Shown here piece after piece: positions 60 to 9,131 of a DNA stretch of 48,547 nucleotides. The position numbers and the translations under genes are program-made. Origin of the DNA: a bacterium (GTDB taxonomy: Bacteria; UBA6262; WVXT01); assembly GCA_046759165.1 (NCBI GenBank), contig JBHIBS010000012.1, positions 1 through 48,547 on the forward strand. Reading direction: 5' to 3'. The notes under the pieces were generated by a model. The model was not told the origin of the DNA, made no database searches, and saw only the letters and a program-made list of their open reading frames with translations. How positions within the stretch are numbered: the first letter of the stretch is position 1; each line of letters opens with the position of its first letter.

Positions 60-276
60 ATGCTCGGGATTTGGTTCGCTCGCTGATAATTTTTTGGTCT
101 TTGACCACCGCCAAAAATCTCAGGAGTTTCTCCCGTTTAGGGGACTAAACTCTTTTCTTCGATTTTTGGCTAAAAATTCTAGTGCTCCCTACGCCAAATT
201 TCCTCGCATTAGGGGAATAGGGCGTCCTTGTTTATTGGCTAAAATTCCAAACGCTCTTTACAAATTATTTTTTAAA
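60..276 (+). repeat. Structured intergenic repeat, copy A
   Basis: Aligns along its length with 6824-7051; nested helices GGGATTTGGT(66-75)/GCCAAATTTC(193-202), GCCAAAAATC(110-119)/GATTTTTGGC(161-170), GAGTTT(124-129)/AAACTC(147-152). Confidence 0.9.
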
Positions 277-318
277 CTTCACGAGGTAATCTTTAATAGG
301 GAGAATTGGATTTAGAGA

Positions 319-627
319 ATGGCTAATCAGAGGATAAGGATACGGCTTAAGGCTTACGACCACAGGATGCTCGACCAGTCTCTAAAGGAGATCGTAGCAA
401 CGGCTAAGAGGACTGGAGCGAAAATTTCAGGACCGATTCTGTTACCGACTAAAATTCGCAAGTATACGGTTCTCAGGTCCACGAATATAGACAAGAAGTC
501 GAGGGAACAGTTTGAAATGCGAATTCACAAGAGGCTTGTGGATATACTTGAGCCACTTCCTCAGACAATAGACGCGCTTATGAAATTGAATCTTCCGGCT
601 GGGGTAGATGTAGAGATAAAACTTTAA
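319..627 (+). CDS. rpsJ: 30S ribosomal protein S10
   Basis: [11 protein letters not shown]...[13 protein letters not shown]...[11 protein letters not shown]. Confidence 0.99.
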
Positions 628-655
628 GAAAACAGCAAGGAAGGATGTGGAGTAA

Positions 656-1297
656 ATGATGGTAGGGATTCTTGGTCAGAAAGTGGGAATGTCTCAGGTC
701 TTTTCTGAGAAAGGGGAAGCTCTCCCTGTTACAGTGATTAAGGCAGGTCCCTGTTTCGTATTACAGAAGAAGAGCGATTCAAAAGAAGGTTATAATGCTA
801 TCCAGATAGGCTACGGTGAAAGAAAACAAAAAAGCTTAAATAAACCAAAAAGAGGCCATTTTGAAAAAGCAAAGGTTAGACCTCTGAAATATTTGAGGGA
901 ATTTCGCGTTCATAATGTGGACGAATATCAACTTGGCCAGGAGATCCGGGTAGACATCTTTAAAGTTGGAGACTATATAGATGTCAAGGGCACCTCAAAA
1001 GGTAAGGGCTTTGCGGGTGCTGTAAAGCGTTGGGGATTTAAAGGTGGCCCTGCTTCTCACGGTTCCAGGCAGCACAGGAGGGTTGGTTCGATTGGCGGAA
1101 GTTCATTCCCCTCGCGAGTTTTTCCTGGAACCAAGATGGCTGGAAGGATGGGGGGAAGTTCGAGCGTGGCGAAGAGACTGGAAGTGGTAAAGATTATCCC
1201 AGAAGATAATCTAATTTTAGTTAAGGGAGCTGTCACCGGGGTTAAGAAAGGCCTAGTTGTCATATCGAAAAGCAAGAAAAAGGAGAAACAGAGCTAA
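656..1297 (+). CDS. rplC: 50S ribosomal protein L3
   Basis: GQKVGMSQVF, SKGKGFAG, RVFPGTKMAGRMG; operon position. Confidence 0.99.
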   Translation: MMVGILGQKVGMSQVFSEKGEALPVTVIKAGPCFVLQKKSDSKEGYNAIQIGYGERKQKSLNKPKRGHFEKAKVRPLKYLREFRVHNVDEYQLGQEIRVDIFKVGDYIDVKGTSKGKGFAGAVKRWGFKGGPASHGSRQHRRVGSIGGSSFPSRVFPGTKMAGRMGGSSSVAKRLEVVKIIPEDNLILVKGAVTGVKKGLVVISKSKKKEKQS

Positions 1298-1325
1298 AGG
1301 ATCACATGTGGAGAAGAGGGAATTA

Positions 1326-1949
1326 ATGCCAGAAGTGGATCTACTCAACTCTAAAGGAAAAAATGTGGGTAAGATTAGCTTACCTGATGAAATTTTTGGC
1401 CAGAAGGTCAATCCAGGATTGGTTCATGAGGCTTTGGTCAGTCAGTTGGCAATGGCCAGGCAGGGGACAGCTTCGACCAAGACGAGAGCAGAAGTTTCGG
1501 GGGGTGGAGCTAAACCCTGGCGGCAAAAAGGCACAGGCAGGGCACGGGTTGGAAGTAATCGATCACCTCTCTGGCGGCACGGAGGGGTTGCCTTTGGCCC
1601 AAAACCACGTTCATACAGGATAGCTTTTCCCAAAAAAAAGAGAAGAAATGCCATAAAACAGGCCTTATCAGAAAAAATACGTGGAAATAGACTTAAAGTT
1701 ATAGATTCGTTGATGCTGGAAGAGGGAAAGACTAAGAAAGCAAAAGCGCTATTGGAAAAGATGGGCGCCTTGGTGGGGACTCTGCTAATTGCAAAAGGTA
1801 GGGATGCAAATTTGTCGAGGGCCTTCGCTAATTTACCTAAAGTTAAATTGATTCCTGTTGAAAGCATCAATATATACGATCTCTTAAATTATGAGAAAAT
1901 AATTATTGCTCGCGATGCCATAGGAGCTATTGTGGAGGGGCTATCCTGA
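1326..1949 (+). CDS. rplD: 50S ribosomal protein L4
   Basis: RQGTASTKTRAEVSGGGAKPWRQKGTGRAR; start moved to ATG 1326. Confidence 0.98.
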   Translation: MPEVDLLNSKGKNVGKISLPDEIFGQKVNPGLVHEALVSQLAMARQGTASTKTRAEVSGGGAKPWRQKGTGRARVGSNRSPLWRHGGVAFGPKPRSYRIAFPKKKRRNAIKQALSEKIRGNRLKVIDSLMLEEGKTKKAKALLEKMGALVGTLLIAKGRDANLSRAFANLPKVKLIPVESINIYDLLNYEKIIIARDAIGAIVEGLS

Positions 1950-2240
1950 ATGTTCGATCCATATCAGATAATCAAGGGCCCATTAGTAACGGAGAAATCT
2001 ACGGCTCTTCGGGGAGAGGAGAACAAGTACAGTTTCTTTGTATCTCTTAGGGCCAGTAAGACTGAGATTAAGAAGGCCATCGAAGAGCTTTTCAAGGTGA
2101 AAGTGGTTAAAGTAAACACGTTCAATCTCAAGGGCAAAAAGAAGAGACTGGGAATTCACCAAGGATATACACCGAGAAGAAAGAAAGCAGTGCTTACCCT
2201 TAAATCGGGGGATACTATAAGAACGTTTGAAGGGGCGTAA
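1950..2240 (+). CDS. rplW: 50S ribosomal protein L23
   Basis: [30 protein letters not shown]. Confidence 0.98.
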
Positions 2241-2244
2241 AATT

Positions 2245-2278
2245 ATGCCCGGGATTTGGTTCGGCTTGCCGGAGAATT
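2245..2278 (+). repeat. 5' fragment of the structured intergenic repeat (copy C)
   Basis: ATGCCCGGGATTTGGTTCGGCTTGCCGGAGAATT vs ATGCTCGGGATTTGGTTCGCTCGCTGAGAATT in copy B. Confidence 0.7.
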
Positions 2279-2296
2279 CTGTTAAAGGGGAAAGAG

Positions 2297-3130
2297 ATGG
2301 CAATAAAGAAATATAAACCCACATCGCCAGCTCGGAGGTCAGCCGTAAGAGTGGCGACAGATGAAATTACGAAAACCGAGCCGCAGAAGACGCTAACTGT
2401 TGGTCTCCGTTCCCATGGAGGAAGGAATGCTTCTGGACGGATTACGGTGAGGCATAGGGGAGGGGGACACAAACGAAGGTATAGAATTATCGATTTTAAG
2501 AGAGATAAGTTTAACATCCCGGCCAAGGTTGCGGCTATAGAATATGATCCCAATCGTTCTTGCCGAATTGCTCTTTTGCAATATGCTGACGGGGTGAAGA
2601 GATATATCCTTCAGCCTCTCGGCCTGCGAGTGGGTGATACTGTTGAGAGTGGAGATTCTGTCCCTATTAGTACAGGCAACAGTCTCCCCTTAAGAAACAT
2701 TCCAGTGGGCTCGATGGTTCATAATATCGAGTTAAGACAGGGTTCTGGTGGCCAGTTGGCTAGAAGTGCCGGGTCATCTGCCCAGATAATTGCTAAAGAA
2801 GACAGATTTGCTCAATTGAAACTCCCTTCTGGAGAAATTCGACTTGCGCTTCTCGATTGTAGAGCTACTATTGGGCAATTGGGAAATATTGAACATGGAA
2901 GTATTAAGTTGGGGAGTGCAGGAATCAAGCGCCGTCTGGGCATTCGACCAAGAGTGAGGGGAGTAGCAATGAATCCGGTCGACCATCCGATGGGAGGTGG
3001 CCGGGGGAAGAGCAAGGGCCGTAATTTACCTCGTTCCCCGTGGGGACAACTATCTAAGGGCTTGAAAATGAGAAAAAAGAAGAAATCTGACATACTAATT
3101 TTGAAAAGGAGAAAGTATAAAGGTGTCTAG
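2297..3130 (+). CDS. rplB: 50S ribosomal protein L2
   Basis: [42 protein letters not shown]. Confidence 0.99.
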
Positions 3131-3410
3131 GTCTACAAAAAAGGGTCCCTATGTGGACGAGAATCTTCTCAAAAAGATTCAAGAGATGAATGCCTCCGGT
3201 CAAAAGAAGGTAATAAAAACCTGGGCAAGAAGTTCAGTAATAACTCCAGAATTTGTTGGGCACACCGTGGCAGTTTATAATGGAAAGAAGTTCATTCCTA
3301 TCTATTTAGCTGAGAATATGGTGGGACATCGGTTAGGAGAGTTTGCTCGCACCAGATTTTTTAGGGGCCATGGTGCCGCCCATACTAAAGAGGTCACGGC
3401 GTTGGCGTAA
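3123..3410 (+). CDS. rpsS: 30S ribosomal protein S19
   Basis: [24 protein letters not shown] start. Confidence 0.99.
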
Positions 3411-3426
3411 AATATGGAGGGCTGAA

Positions 3427-3771
3427 GTGGCAACAAGGGCGGTCGCCAGATTTGTAAGGTTAGGCCCCAGGAAAGTTGGTCAAGTCTTAGATTTGATTCG
3501 AGGTAAAGGGGTATCGGAGGCTTATCAAATTTTAAAATTTACTCCCCGCCGGTCGGCTAAGGCTGTGGAGAAGGTATTGAAGTCAGCAGTCGCTAATACT
3601 CGAACACCTGGAGACGAACCGAATCTATATATCGCAGAAGCTTATGTTGGACAAGGTCCTGTCTTAAAACGTATCAGGCCTAGGGCCATGGGTCGAGTAG
3701 CGATCTATCGAAGGAAAACTTGCCATATTTATATAGTTGTGGAGAGGCGTAAGGTTTTAGCAAGGGGGTAG
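3427..3771 (+). CDS. rplV: 50S ribosomal protein L22
   Basis: PRKVGQVLDLIRGK, LKSAVAN, LKRIRPRAMGR; GTG 3427 after GGAGG. Confidence 0.97.
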   Translation: MATRAVARFVRLGPRKVGQVLDLIRGKGVSEAYQILKFTPRRSAKAVEKVLKSAVANTRTPGDEPNLYIAEAYVGQGPVLKRIRPRAMGRVAIYRRKTCHIYIVVERRKVLARG

Positions 3772-3775
3772 AAAG

Positions 3776-4483
3776 TTGGGACAAAAAGTTCATCCGGTTG
3801 GAAGTCGTCTTGGTTTCATTAAGACCTGGGATGCAAAATGGTTTGGGGGAAAGAACCTTCGCCGTATGCTCCACGAAGATATAGCTCTAAGGGAGTTTAT
3901 CAAAAAGAAGCTTCATCAAAGTGGAGTGGGCAAAATAAAAATGGAACGGGCCGGTAAATCTTTGCGAGTGGATATCCATACGGCAAGGCCAGGACTGGTG
4001 ATTGGCAAGAGAGGTGCTGATATTGAAAATTTAAGAACGGACCTAGAAGAAATGACAGATCAGAAAGTCTTTATTAACATTATCCCCATAAAGAAACCTG
4101 AAATGGACGCTCAGGTTGTGGCTGAAGGGATCGCGATGCAGTTGGAGAAGAAGATGCCTTATCGGAGAGTAATGAAAAGGGCAATTTCGCGAGCAATGGA
4201 AAGCGGAGCAGGGGGGATTAAGGTATGCGTTAGTGGTCGCCTTGGTGGGGCAGAGATAGCCCGTACCGAGTGGCTAAAAGAGGGACGTATTCCCTTGCAG
4301 ACTTTTCGAGCCGATATCGATTATGGCTTTGCCGAAAGCTTTACCACATATGGTCAAATTGGAGTTAAGATCTGGATCTTTAAGGAGGACGTTGGCGAAC
4401 CTGCTCATACGGAAGAGAAGGAAAAAGTAGAACAGAGTCAAAAAGATGAGGTGAAGACAGATGCTAATGCCCAAGAAAGTTAA
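3776..4483 (+). CDS. rpsC: 30S ribosomal protein S3
   Basis: [33 protein letters not shown] start. Confidence 0.99.
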
Positions 4484-4871
4484 GTATCGCAAGGCGCAGC
4501 GTAGAAGGAGGAAGGGCATAGCTTTACGCGGAAATAGGATAAATTTTGGCGAGTTTGGATTACAGGCTCTTGAACCGGCTTGGCTTTCAGCCCAGCAGAT
4601 TGAGGCTGCGCGAGTGGCTTTGACTCGCTCTTTAAAGAGAGGAGGAAAGGTTTGGATTAGAATTTTTCCGGACAAGGCGGTTACCAAGAAACCAGCAGAG
4701 ACTCGGATGGGAAAGGGGAAGGGTGCCCCCGCCGGGTGGGTAGCTGTGGTCAAGCCTGGAAGGATCCTCTTTGAAATCGAGGGAGTCGGACGTCCTCAGG
4801 CAGAAGCCGCGATGAACTTGGCCAGTCATAAATTGCCGATAAGGACGGCATTTTTAGCAAGGGGAGAATGA
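4461..4871 (+). CDS. rplP: 50S ribosomal protein L16
   Basis: [24 protein letters not shown]. Confidence 0.99.
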
Positions 4872-4911
4872 CAAAATTTCTAATGTTCGAAATGGCTAAC
4901 GGGAAACGAAG

Positions 4912-5118
4912 ATGAAAGCGAGCAAATTGAGAGAGCTGAGTGTGGCCGAATTGGAGCAGAAGTTGAACGAGACTATGCAGAAACTATTTCAGTTAAAATT
5001 CAAAAATGCCTCAGGTCAATTGAAGAATCCGCTGGAGATCAGGCTACTCCGCAGGGATATTGCACGGGTTAAGACAGTTCTGGCAGAAAGGGAACTGTCT
5101 AAAGAAAAAGAAGGCTAA
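4912..5118 (+). CDS. rpmC: 50S ribosomal protein L29
   Basis: LFQLKF...IRLLRRDIARVKT. Confidence 0.98.
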   Translation: MKASKLRELSVAELEQKLNETMQKLFQLKFKNASGQLKNPLEIRLLRRDIARVKTVLAERELSKEKEG

Positions 5119-5128
5119 AGGAGAAAGG

Positions 5129-5395
5129 ATGGCAGAAGGTCAAGGAAAACGCAAGATCAGGATTGGTGAAGTGGTCAGTGATAGGATGGGGAAGACCAGA
5201 GTAGTAGTAGTGGAGAGATTGCTTAGGCATCCTCGGTATCAAAAAATTATCAAAAGAAGAAAGAAATTTATGGTGGATGACCCCAAGAACGAATTGCACA
5301 TGGGAGACAAGGTGAGAATTGCTGAAACTAGACCCTTGAGTAAAAGGAAGAGGTGGCGAGTTCTGGAAATTCTGGAAAAGGCAGAGAGAGTCTAA
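5129..5395 (+). CDS. rpsQ: 30S ribosomal protein S17
   Basis: [25 protein letters not shown]; start at ATG 5129. Confidence 0.98.
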
Positions 5396-5396
5396 T

Positions 5397-5765
5397 ATGA
5401 TACAGATGCAGACGAGACTAAATATAGCTGACAATACTGGAGCAAGAAAAATTGCTTGCATAGGAATCTTAGGCGGAACTAAGAAAAGATATGCAAGAGT
5501 GGGCGATATAATTAGGGCTTCAGTAAAAGATGCTTTGCCAGACGCTACGATTAAGAAGGGGGAAGTTGTGAGGGCAGTGATTGTTAGAATGAAGAAATGG
5601 ATTCGTCGACCTGATGGTTCCTATGTCAGATTTGACGAAAACGGTGCAGTAATTGTGGATGCTAACAACGAACCCAAGGGGACTCGAATTTTTGGGCCAA
5701 TTGCTCGTGAGCTGAGAGATAAGGGATTCACTAAGATAATCTCTCTGGCTCCTGAAGTAGTATAA
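5397..5765 (+). CDS. rplN: 50S ribosomal protein L14
   Basis: [16 protein letters not shown]...[10 protein letters not shown]. Confidence 0.99.
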
Positions 5766-5802
5766 TATTACATTATTCATATCATATGCCAGGAGAATTG
5801 AT

Positions 5803-6114
5803 GTGTTGACAATCAAAAAGAAGGATAAGGTAGTAGTAAAGACGGGTAAAGACAAGGGCAAAAGTGGTGAAGTCCTGAAGGTGTTTGCCGAGACTTCTCG
5901 AGTAATAGTAAGCAAGATAAATTTTATAAAGAGGCATGCCCGGCCAACAGAGACCACGCCGGGGGGGATAACAGAGAAAGAATCTCCAATTCATATCTCC
6001 AATGTACAGTTGATTTGCCCTAAATGTAACCAGGCTACTCGAGTAAAGATAGACCATCTAAGTGATGGTAAGAAGATAAGGATTTGTCGAAAATGCGGAG
6101 AAATGATAGTGTAA
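5803..6114 (+). CDS. rplX: 50S ribosomal protein L24
   Basis: TGKDKGKSGEV, ESPIHISNV; two CxxC pairs. Confidence 0.98.
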   Translation: MLTIKKKDKVVVKTGKDKGKSGEVLKVFAETSRVIVSKINFIKRHARPTETTPGGITEKESPIHISNVQLICPKCNQATRVKIDHLSDGKKIRICRKCGEMIV

Positions 6115-6124
6115 GCAACTACCT

Positions 6125-6219
6125 AATTATAAATTATCATATATGAATTATGAATTTTGAATAAAACTTCGCTTTGGTTGGTCGCTTAAATCGTAATCTA
6201 TAGGGCATAATTAATAATT
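6125..6219. repeat. AT-rich heptad (NAATTAT) inverted-repeat element
   Basis: AATTATAAATTAT (6125-6137) vs ATAATTAATAATT (6207-6219), 12/13 complementary; internal ATGAATTATGAATT; resembles 14513-14609. Confidence 0.5.
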
Positions 6220-6239
6220 CTTTCCTGAAGGAAAGAACG

Positions 6240-6785
6240 ATGGCGAGATTAAGAGAATTATATAAGAAAAAGATTGTTCATCAACTGATGAAGCGTCTGA
6301 AATATGAGAATATTATGGAAGTGCCCAGAGTAGATAAGATAGTAATCAATATAGGTGTTTCGGCAGCAAAGGAGGATATCAAGGTTTTGGACGAAGCAGT
6401 GGAAGAGTTGGCAGCAATAACAGGACAGAAGCCTATTGTGACCAGGGCAAAAAAGTCGATCTCCAACTTCAAACTTCGTAAGGGAATGCCGATAGGCTGC
6501 AGAGTCACCCTCCATGGAACTATGATGTACGAGTTTCTGGACCGTTTGATTAATGTTGCAGCGCCCAGGGTTCGTGATTTTCGGGGAATTTCCCCTGATG
6601 GATTCGATGGCCAAGGAAATTATAATCTGGGAATTCAAGAACATATAATTTTTCCTGAGATTAATATGGATAAGGTCGGTAAAATCAAAGGAATGAACGT
6701 GAGTATAGTAACCACAGCCAGAAATAGAGATGAGGCATATGAGTTATTAAGTCTTTTCGGTATGCCTTTTCGAAAGAAGGGGTGA
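6240..6785 (+). CDS. rplE: 50S ribosomal protein L5
   Basis: [31 protein letters not shown]. Confidence 0.99.
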
Positions 6786-6790
6786 TAGAA

Positions 6791-7051
6791 TTTAAAAATA
6801 GTTTGTTCATCGCTTAAGAATATATGCTCGGGATTTGGTTCGCTCGCTGAGAATTTTTTGCTCTTCGAGCACCGCCAAAAATCTCAGGAGTTTCCCGAAA
6901 TTCCCTTTGGTCAGTTTCGGCTAAACTCTAATCTTCGATTTTTGGCTAAAAATTCTAATGCTCACTACACCAAATCCCCTCGCATTAGGGGAAGAGGCCG
7001 TTCTCGTTTTTTGGCTGAAATTCCAAGAGTTTTTCACAAACTATTTTCAAA
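6791..7051 (+). repeat. Structured intergenic repeat, copy B, with terminal inverted repeats (MITE-like)
   Basis: TTTAAAAATAGTTTGT (6791-6806)/ACAAACTATTTTCAAA (7036-7051), 15/16 complementary; same inner helices as copy A with compensatory changes. Confidence 0.9.
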
Positions 7052-7091
7052 TGTTGGGAATTAAGGGTAGATTCACACAAGGAGGAATTTT

Positions 7092-7277
7092 TTGGCAAAG
7101 AAAAGTTTAATTGCTAAGGCTAAACGGCCACCAAAGTTTATTACAAGAAAATATAACCGGTGCCATCTTTGTGGTAGGGCGCGAGGATATATACGCGACT
7201 TTGCGCTGTGCAGGATATGTTTCCGTAAATTGGCGCGCCAGGGGGAAGTCCCAGGAGTGATAAAATCCAGCTGGTAA
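7092..7277 (+). CDS. rpsN: 30S ribosomal protein S14, zinc-binding type
   Basis: 61 aa, RCHLCGR...LCRICFR; TTG start. Confidence 0.98.
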
Positions 7278-8636: not shown

Positions 8637-9131
8637 TTGGCAAGGATGAGTGCAGAAGGGTTGGAACTGAAACAGATAGTTGTAAGTGTCAATAGAGTGG
8701 CTAAAGTAGTTAAGGGAGGTAAACGGTTTGGCTTTACCGCGCTGGTAGTTGTAGGGAATGGGAATGGTTATGTGGGATGTGGGATGGGCAAGGCGAAAGA
8801 AGTTCAAGCTGCTATTCAGAAGGGTACTGCAAGAGCCGAAAAGAACCTCATTGCTGTTCCCCTGAATGGCACCACAATTCCTCATGAGGTAATTGCTCGC
8901 TTTGGGGCTGGTCGGGTGCTGTTAAAGCCTGCTAGCCCGGGGACTGGGATAATAGCGTGCGGTCCGGTAAGGGCAGTAGTGGAAGCAGTGGGCATAAAGG
9001 ATATTCTGACTAAATCGCTTAAGTCGAATAATCCGGTCAATGTAGTCTATGCTACAATGAAAGGACTTGAAAGTCTAAGGACGAAGGACAAAGTTGCAGA
9101 ATTGCGAGGCAAAAAGATAGAAGAATTATGA
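8637..9131 (+). CDS. rpsE: 30S ribosomal protein S5
   Basis: [25 protein letters not shown] start. Confidence 0.99.

Follow-up and report, generated by a model that had tools for sequence, protein, structure and literature searches.

What kind of sequence can fill the spacers of a compact, highly expressed ribosomal protein operon with copies that have diverged from one another and still fold? The question is raised by a 48,547-nt contig of an uncultured bacterium (JBHIBS010000012.1, assembly GCA_046759165.1; hereafter the window, by which we mean this whole stretch of DNA), in which a preliminary description had pointed to two copies of a structured element, A and B, among the genes of the S10/spc ribosomal protein cluster, and to a fragment of the same element. 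We characterized these copies together with their relatives in the window's own genome, in related metagenome-assembled genomes (MAGs) and in metagenome loci. The two copies are 81-85% identical over ~220 nt and retain nested helices, and the existence of a repeat family, as first described, is confirmed. We consider it reasonably probable that this is a lineage-specific family of non-coding, non-autonomous and probably mobile mosaic repeats, built of nested inverted repeats and resembling miniature inverted-repeat transposable elements (MITEs) and REPINs, the inverted doublets of repetitive extragenic palindromes (REPs). Of the options proposed at the outset, a non-autonomous mobile element fits best with the terminal inverted repeats, the many copies, the non-coding nature of the repeats and the differences in their presence between genomes whose rplE genes are 98.5% identical.

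Anatomy and distribution of the repeat family

The outer element consists of a left module of ~35 nt and a right module of ~65 nt, with a terminal inverted repeat of 13-17 nt. In type I elements (~260 nt) these modules hold a core of ~165 nt, core I, which has 16-nt inverted termini of its own. Type II elements (~180 nt) have both ends in common with copy B and an unrelated palindromic core in the middle, and they are commoner than type I in the window's genome (G000). The ends common to the two types read ...AAAGATAGTTTGTTCATCGC... on the left and ...TTTTGGCTAAAATTCC...ACAAACTATCTTT... on the right. Family members range from 120 to 270 nt, and both terminal arms are present in 39 distinct full-length copies, in several of which the arms vary together (for example GATGGTTTGT with ACAAACCATC in G003). 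The upstream end of a copy often lies at, or a few bases from, the upstream stop codon, and the right module, the most abundant piece of the family, ends 20-140 nt before the next start codon.

Copy B (6790-7052, + strand) is a complete type I composite that fills the rplE-rpsN spacer and matches the family profile, built from eight full copies, with an nhmmer E value of 2e-85 over 6793-7051. The left arm of its outer inverted repeat (6790-6806, 17 nt) is 94% complementary to the right arm (7036-7052), in agreement with the terminal repeats first described, and the right arm belongs to a right outer module (6992-7052) that is common to the ~180-nt type II elements. Nested inside is core I (6824-6985), closed by ATGC/GCAT (helix P0, 6824-6827/6982-6985) and by the perfect 10-bp helix P1, GGGATTTGGT/ACCAAATCCC (6830-6839/6969-6978), the 10-nt arms of which are 100% complementary. 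Within the core, the A/T-run helix P2 (6847-6887; arms 6847-6858 and 6877-6887) encloses the P3 hairpin (6860-6870), and helix P4 (6888-6928; 6888-6893/6923-6928) bears an exchangeable apical hairpin (6894-6921); the A/T-run arms have an alternative pairing with 6937-6956. The architecture is one of three palindromic layers, nested within each other. Neither this composite build of copy B nor the commoner sister type with the same ends had been noticed before.

Copy A (59-276, + strand; nhmmer E value 1.9e-73) fills the tuf-rpsJ spacer and is without the left outer module and the left inverted-repeat arm: its core I (59-215) begins 2 nt past the EF-Tu stop codon and is followed by the right outer module (216-276). 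Core I stands alone, without outer ends, at many loci, and copy A resembles these on its left side. The boundaries first given for the copies are here corrected to 6790-7052 for B and to about 59-276 for A. The 5' arm of P1 in copy A (66-75) pairs with 193-202 and includes three G-T pairs, as had been seen. The reported covariation of the side hairpin likewise holds (GGTC-TTT-GACC at 96-106 in copy A, a compensatory variant of GCTC-TTC-GAGC at 6860-6870 in copy B), and so does the replacement of the apical hairpin by another that still pairs (TCCC..GGGA in one copy, CCGAAA..TTTCGG in the other). Across the family, the apical hairpin on P4 is represented by at least five unrelated inserts, among them a REP-like hairpin (GCAGAGCG...CTCTGC) and a perfect palindrome of 20 nt that has further copies in other parts of G000. 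This palindrome, GGGTTCGATTTATCGAACCC, gives 49 strand-counted matches at ~25 sites in G000, including some within copies (C9:36300, C26:600), and at some sites takes the place of part of core I.

The fragment is a 34-nt remnant of the 5' end of core I (2245-2278, + strand) in the spacer between the genes for L23 (1950-2240) and L2 (2297-3130). It shares with both copies the 14-mer CGGGATTTGGTTCG, which occurs three times in the window (65, 2250 and 6829), always on the + strand, against an expectation of 0.02, and none of 100 shuffles reached three occurrences. Copies A and B and the fragment are all on the + strand, as are the ribosomal protein genes.

Open reading frames (ORFs) within copies of the family differ in length through indels. 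Two mechanical ORFs of 73 and 68 aa (94-315 and 6858-7064) were assigned wholly to copies A and B; on the sequence, they are unlikely to be genes because the indels between copies are not multiples of three. An 8-codon mini-ORF (ATG...TGA) at the 5' end of core I was dismissed on the grounds that its ATG is missing from several copies. Annotation should mask the copies as repeats and give them neither ORF calls, as at 94-315 and 6858-7064, nor the status of novel regulatory RNAs.

In G000 (1.885 Mb in 165 contigs, with a contamination estimate of 3.5%), 72 nhmmer matches were found at E<0.01, ~30 of which cover HMM positions 197-261 only. By a BLAST-level search, the family was present in all eight MAGs of the same family as G000 (G001-G008, spanning three other genera; nine family genomes with G000) and in none of 32 genomes outside it, including two of the same order and one of the same class. 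Type I copies are most numerous in G007. In a species-representative collection, 48 stretches contain one 26-mer of core I without mismatch, all of them in MAGs labelled 'uncultured Clostridia bacterium' or 'bacterium', and metagenome stretches with a 19-mer from the left end number more than 120, a lower bound. Rfam gave no match at the gathering score across the whole window and none at E<=10 on copy B, in keeping with the earlier statement that no named family could be recognized.

Copies sit in the S10/spc operon at the same junctions in three genera. In the window, the genes that flank them are the 3' end of tuf (1-57; the last 18 codons, REGGHTVGAGVISEIIE*, with the stop TAG at 55-57; in G007, the full ORF of the ortholog matches TIGR00485 EF-Tu at 717 bits) and rpsJ for ribosomal protein S10 (319-627; NF001861, 162 bits) on either side of copy A, and rplE for L5 (6240-6785; NF000585, 283.6 bits) and rpsN for type Z S14 (7092-7277; NF005974, 109 bits) on either side of copy B; the cluster continues with L18 (8234-8623) and S5 (8637-9131), and all of these genes are on the + strand. 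MAG contigs break within or beside family repeats, at position 1 of the window and on contigs G003:C24, G004:C118 and C72, G005:C72, G008:C59 and G002:C95, with breaks either in the L23-L2 spacer or shortly before rpsJ. Since contigs end at copies, the family fragments assemblies of this lineage. In this uncultured lineage even the most compact and highly expressed operons have been colonized, and it is there that the family breaks MAG assemblies.

Turnover at fixed junctions and orientation

If the family is a set of probably mobile mosaic repeats, its copies, which lie between co-directional genes and hence are presumably co-transcribed, would persist by two routes: gain and loss at spacers, and exchange of cores between copies with common end modules, by recombination or gene conversion. 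The comparison of orthologous spacers is consistent with both. At rplE-rpsN, the element has the same junctions in G000, G003, G004, G005 and G007; G001 retains a remnant of ~75 nt, and in G002, G006 and G008 the element is absent or other repeats stand in its place. G003 and G006, with rplE genes 98.5% identical (97% at four-fold sites), differ by a whole element at this spacer, with a 5-nt ATTTA repeat at the junction, and differ by a whole element at rplR-rpsE too. The latter spacer holds type I in G003, type II with the same junctions in G007 and a REP-like composite in G005; in G006 and G008 the flanks abut with a 5-nt AAATA overlap, a state more probably left behind by a deletion than representing a virgin target, and in G000 there is only TGA with the ribosome-binding site immediately after it. 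At a third site, where the stop codon of the upstream gene lies in the left inverted repeat, the occupant varies by genome between type I, type II, a minimal hairpin that has lost its core, and REP-like composites. In the L23-L2 spacer, where G000 has the fragment, G007 has a full core I with right module and G003 a full element of type II. As read from these alignments, copies are gained, lost, trimmed and re-cored at fixed junctions, and exchange between copies with common end modules would be the simplest explanation of this turnover.

Other repeats occupy the same spacers. GTAGC...GCTAC composites with two hairpins hold them in G004, G005 and G008, and in G002 the rplE-rpsN and tuf-rpsJ spacers contain tandem heptamers (GTTCGTA-like) in long inverted arrays as well as AT-rich ATGAATT repeats. 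The different repeats of G002 suggest that sets of spacer colonizers are genus-specific.

Several observations weigh against a mobile, selfish family. No consistent target-site duplication was found in the flanks of 39 full-length copies, and a TA duplication of the IS630/Tc1-like kind was rejected, as the base beside the repeat varies. The two comparisons of filled and empty sites show the 5-nt repeats ATTTA and AAATA, and the 'empty' sites of G006 and G008 look like microhomology deletions rather than pristine targets. The search for empty sites that had been proposed thus yielded the expected differences in presence among relatives but sites of this deletion-like kind, and, with no consistent duplication, transposition itself is putative. 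The conservation of the elements is also higher than might be anticipated. Core I copies, without the apical hairpin, are on average 90.4% identical, within and between genomes alike; orthologous rplE-rpsN spacers are 86-92% identical at aligned positions, and rplE of G000 is 86-91% identical to that of each relative, with values of 67-84% at four-fold sites. This indicates that the elements are better conserved than nearby synonymous sites, through constraint, homogenization among copies or spread from conserved sources, and it points to constraint or homogenization of a kind for which an element that is purely selfish and decaying would have no need.

To these points can be added the absence of a mobilizing enzyme tied to the family in the genomes and loci searched (IS110, IS256, rve, ISL3 and others were not searched), an absence of limited weight, as the assemblies are fragmented MAGs. 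The autonomous partner with the same ends for which a search had been advised was not found: end pairs 400-20000 nt apart in G000 are chance pairs around ordinary genes only and enclose no transposase, and neither in G000 nor among 80 metagenome loci does any copy longer than 420 nt enclose one; the single 1143-nt end pair of the metagenome loci resolves into a left end standing alone, an ordinary gene and a copy of type II. The transposase families DDE_3 (PF13358) and DDE_Tnp_1 (PF01609) were each found in one of the nine genomes, on small G000 contigs of which the ends differ from those of the element. Every DDE-type transposase gene that turned up in the nine genomes is on a G000 contig of 1.6-3.5 kb (C113, C129, C112, C89, C137, C127, C103 and C158), and these may be collapsed insertion sequences or contamination. 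Loci with Y1_Tnp or TnpB genes that were returned by our searches (L148-L167) do not contain the element's ends.

The orientation of copies must be weighed with similar care. Of 64 matches in G000, 55 were free of an overlapping ORF call, and 45 of these have the same direction as both neighboring genes, 7 have one neighbor and share its direction, 3 are mixed and none is opposite to both; the corresponding values are 37, 13, 4 and 0 for 54 matches in loci of relatives and 61, 15, 4 and 0 for 80 metagenome loci, but these counts are not independent, since the copies are related, the gene map behind them is crude (greedy choice among ORFs with a minimum of 80 aa, 88% of the genome covered), and some metagenome contigs may duplicate MAGs. 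The agreement with the direction of the transcript that was first noted for the three pieces in the window is true of all three and extends far beyond it. For the uniform orientation, the best explanation is insertion tied to replication direction, removal of copies that lie antisense to transcription, or both. In G000, 88% of genes are on the majority strand (contigs of at least 15 kb), and only 21 of 884 co-directional spacers are on the minority strand; about one of 42 elements would be expected there and none was seen (p=0.36), and a looser count gave one minority-strand element in 45. Gene-strand bias is too strong, therefore, for replication and transcription to be separated as the cause of orientation, a point missed by the initial reading, which had attached orientation to the transcript. 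Insertion sequences have family-specific orientation biases relative to replication, especially in Firmicutes (PMC3971601), and HUH transposition through single strands is coupled to the lagging-strand template (PMC6006769).

Other repeats of G000 are biased in the same manner: relative to genes, co-oriented and opposite copies stand at 20:2 for the REP-like unit of GTAG plus hairpin and at 17:2 for the repeat on either side of one of two RAYT (REP-associated tyrosine transposase) genes. Because these repeats are biased likewise, orientation bias seems to be a property of intergenic repeats in this lineage and not of the element alone. The canonical-looking REP unit (GTAG, 1-3 nt, then the GCAGAGCG...CTCTGC hairpin) numbers 25 in G000, with none in the window, and often stands directly after the right end of the element (type II, e.g. 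C4:14530 and C19:7590) or nested in core I. The RAYT-flanking repeat, AAAAGGGGTCAGAGTCATTTTTT, has 23 copies in G000 and occupies the tuf-rpsJ spacer in G006 and G008 as well.

Folding, mobilization and competing explanations

Do the nested helices reflect selection on RNA? One possible explanation of the family is that it is a domesticated cis-acting RNA module, kept in operon transcripts for its folded RNA, that would shield the upstream message from 3' exonucleases, provide RNase entry that uncouples cistrons, or insulate the translation of adjacent genes. We regard this as unlikely, and the evidence from folding falls on both sides. In an alignment of 51 of the 62 distinct core I copies (the 11 omitted being the most rearranged or the last found), helices P0-P5 have 92.1% of their cells paired, and 12 pairs change on both sides, compared with 3.9±1.4 in shuffles (0 of 500 reach 12) and 3-8 in slid controls, which supports the helices. 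RNAalifold recovers P1 and otherwise weak structure (-11.5 kcal/mol). Covariation is restricted to P1, P3 and P4: P1 has 96.7% of cells paired and three pairs that change on both sides, at columns 58/66 of P3, 45 copies have CG and 6 have GC, and four of the six pairs of P4 change on both sides, each in single copies. The two arrangements of the A/T-run arms pair 92.1% and 92.9% of cells, with no covariation in either. In addition to these compensatory changes and to the apical inserts, which differ among copies and all fold into hairpins, the RNA module is favored by the lack of any copy that opposes both neighboring genes where both were called, by the persistence of copies at the same S10/spc junctions in three genera, and by sequence conservation above that of the four-fold sites of rplE.

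Set against this, there is no strand asymmetry of wobble pairs. G-U outnumbers A-C mismatches by 41 to 27 (p=0.11) over 43 copies, a comparison in which counts are not independent and from which 8 of the 51 rows, those with a replaced P2 or P4 segment, were left out. The G-U pairs noted in the outer helix of copy A do exist, as described above, but the argument that they reveal selection on the + strand RNA does not extend to the family. The minus strand of copy B folds as well or better (-81.9 kcal/mol, z -5.8) than the plus strand (-76.6 kcal/mol, z -5.0), and RNA-strand-specific selection is thus not evident either in the wobble pairs of the 43 copies or in copy B, both strands of which fold equally well. 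The complementarity is real as judged from the alignment, and DNA-level palindromes would look the same as RNA helices; in a family of probably mobile mosaic repeats, compensatory changes would represent the upkeep of palindromes, by DNA hairpins or by RNA folding. The same spacers contain unrelated cores, REP-like inserts or nothing in close relatives, and this variety means, therefore, that no single site needs the element. Rfam has no match to it, and the orientation bias is not specific to the element, other repeat families of G000 being equally biased. A ribozyme or a processing signal, both of which had been put forward, found nothing in its support.

A related proposal, which we judge to be quite doubtful, is that the host has retained copies as transcript-embedded RNA modules, much like exapted short interspersed elements (SINEs), with the nested fold setting segmental mRNA stability or uncoupling cistrons within polycistronic messages, those of the S10/spc operon included, and the exchangeable hairpin and cores tuning the effect. 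Should it be true, it would explain orientation, retention at the same junctions across genera and conservation above synonymous sites.

A different question is what might move the copies. The family could be a REPIN-like element that is moved as single-stranded DNA by a host RAYT, its inverted end modules corresponding to the REP doublet and its orientation bias arising from action on one replication strand, although we think it quite improbable that this is the correct account. Family genomes hold RAYT-like genes of ~225 aa. Of two in G000, one (C4:49789-50478, 229 aa, locus L152) scores 85.8 bits against NF047646, for which the cut-off is 80, and the other (~224 aa) lies at C40:2340-3090; on both sides of each gene are inverted copies of a ~20-nt repeat particular to it, AAAAGGGGTCAGAGTCATTTTTT for the first and AAAAGGGGACAGGCTACTTTTT for the second. 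Y1_Tnp genes occur in seven of the nine family genomes, and in three to four of these genomes they include an IS200/IS605-type TnpA with TnpB. Also in keeping with a RAYT are the co-orientation of the REP-like repeats of G000 with genes (20:2 and 17:2), the nested hairpins that can form on either strand, the ability of an extragenic inverted doublet to form one long hairpin, and the lack of an evident target duplication. However, the repeats that flank both RAYT-like genes differ from the ends of the element, and these ends are in none of the Y1/TnpB loci returned. No Y1_Tnp match was obtained in G006 and G007, which are 92% and 83% complete, though G007 has the most type I copies. Canonical REPs are defined (PMC6006769) by GTAG or GTGG placed 0-2 nt from a hairpin on its 5' side, and neither tetranucleotide is present at the ends of the element, which read ...AAAGATAGTTTGT.

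Finally, a portable promoter or terminator cassette, with the right module as an outward promoter or with the element modulating read-through, is very improbable: no piece is as abundant as the right module, which ends close to downstream start codons, and terminator-like hairpins, flagged on the minus strand only of both copies, could explain counter-selection of the inverted orientation, but a consensus scan found no sigma-70-like site in copy A or B, the minus-strand terminators are weak (the 9 in the region fall within the shuffle expectation of 6.0±2.4), and tightly co-transcribed ribosomal protein operons need no internal promoter.

Comparison with known systems

The repeat family is previously undescribed, as far as can be told from Rfam, where it has no match, and from a literature search that was aimed at general background and not at this family and brought up no paper on it. 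It can be likened to four groups of bacterial elements, to each of them in part. Palindrome-associated elements derived from IS200/IS605, and the ends of TnpB guide RNAs, are strand-specific, tied to replication and structured. The properties of the IS200/IS605 family are described in PMC6006769. Replication-tied strand specificity, structured ends and the lack of an evident target duplication are features that recall the present family; unlike it, elements of the IS200/IS605 kind are without terminal inverted repeats, and TnpA/TnpB genes are present in only three to four of the nine genomes, where none of the loci returned for them has the element's ends.

The pneumococcal BOX element is modular, with shared end modules and a variable middle, is transcribed and folds strongly. 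By this description its modular build is like that of the family, and its middle differs in consisting of tandem boxB units, where nested inverted repeats are found here. REPs, bacterial interspersed mosaic elements (BIMEs) and REPINs, with their RAYTs, are likewise extragenic palindromes that occur as inverted doublets and as mosaics of modules, as described in PMC3116915 and PMC6006769. The likeness extends to RAYT genes in the same genome, to the lack of an obvious target duplication and to the REP units that stand beside many copies or are nested in them. The family departs from this group in that its ends are not GTAG/GTGG-tagged hairpins, its members are far longer than a REP doublet, and the RAYT genes are accompanied by other repeats.

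Bacterial MITEs, such as Correia/NEMIS of Neisseria, ERIC, RUP, Nezha and bcr1, are the fourth group. A general description of MITEs is given in PMC3184786. As in MITEs, the elements are small, non-coding, multi-copy and intergenic, have terminal inverted repeats and long stem-loops, are presumably co-transcribed with their neighbors, and vary in presence between relatives. They differ in that no target-site duplication can be defined and no autonomous element with the same ends was found. The family also differs from MITEs in being composed of three nested palindromic layers, in having cores that can be exchanged, and in having no copy that opposes both of its neighbors where both were called. 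How the orientation of small repeats is chosen or retained could usefully be studied in this family, a natural case that combines a nested architecture, cores exchanged at fixed junctions and the lack of copies that oppose their neighboring genes.

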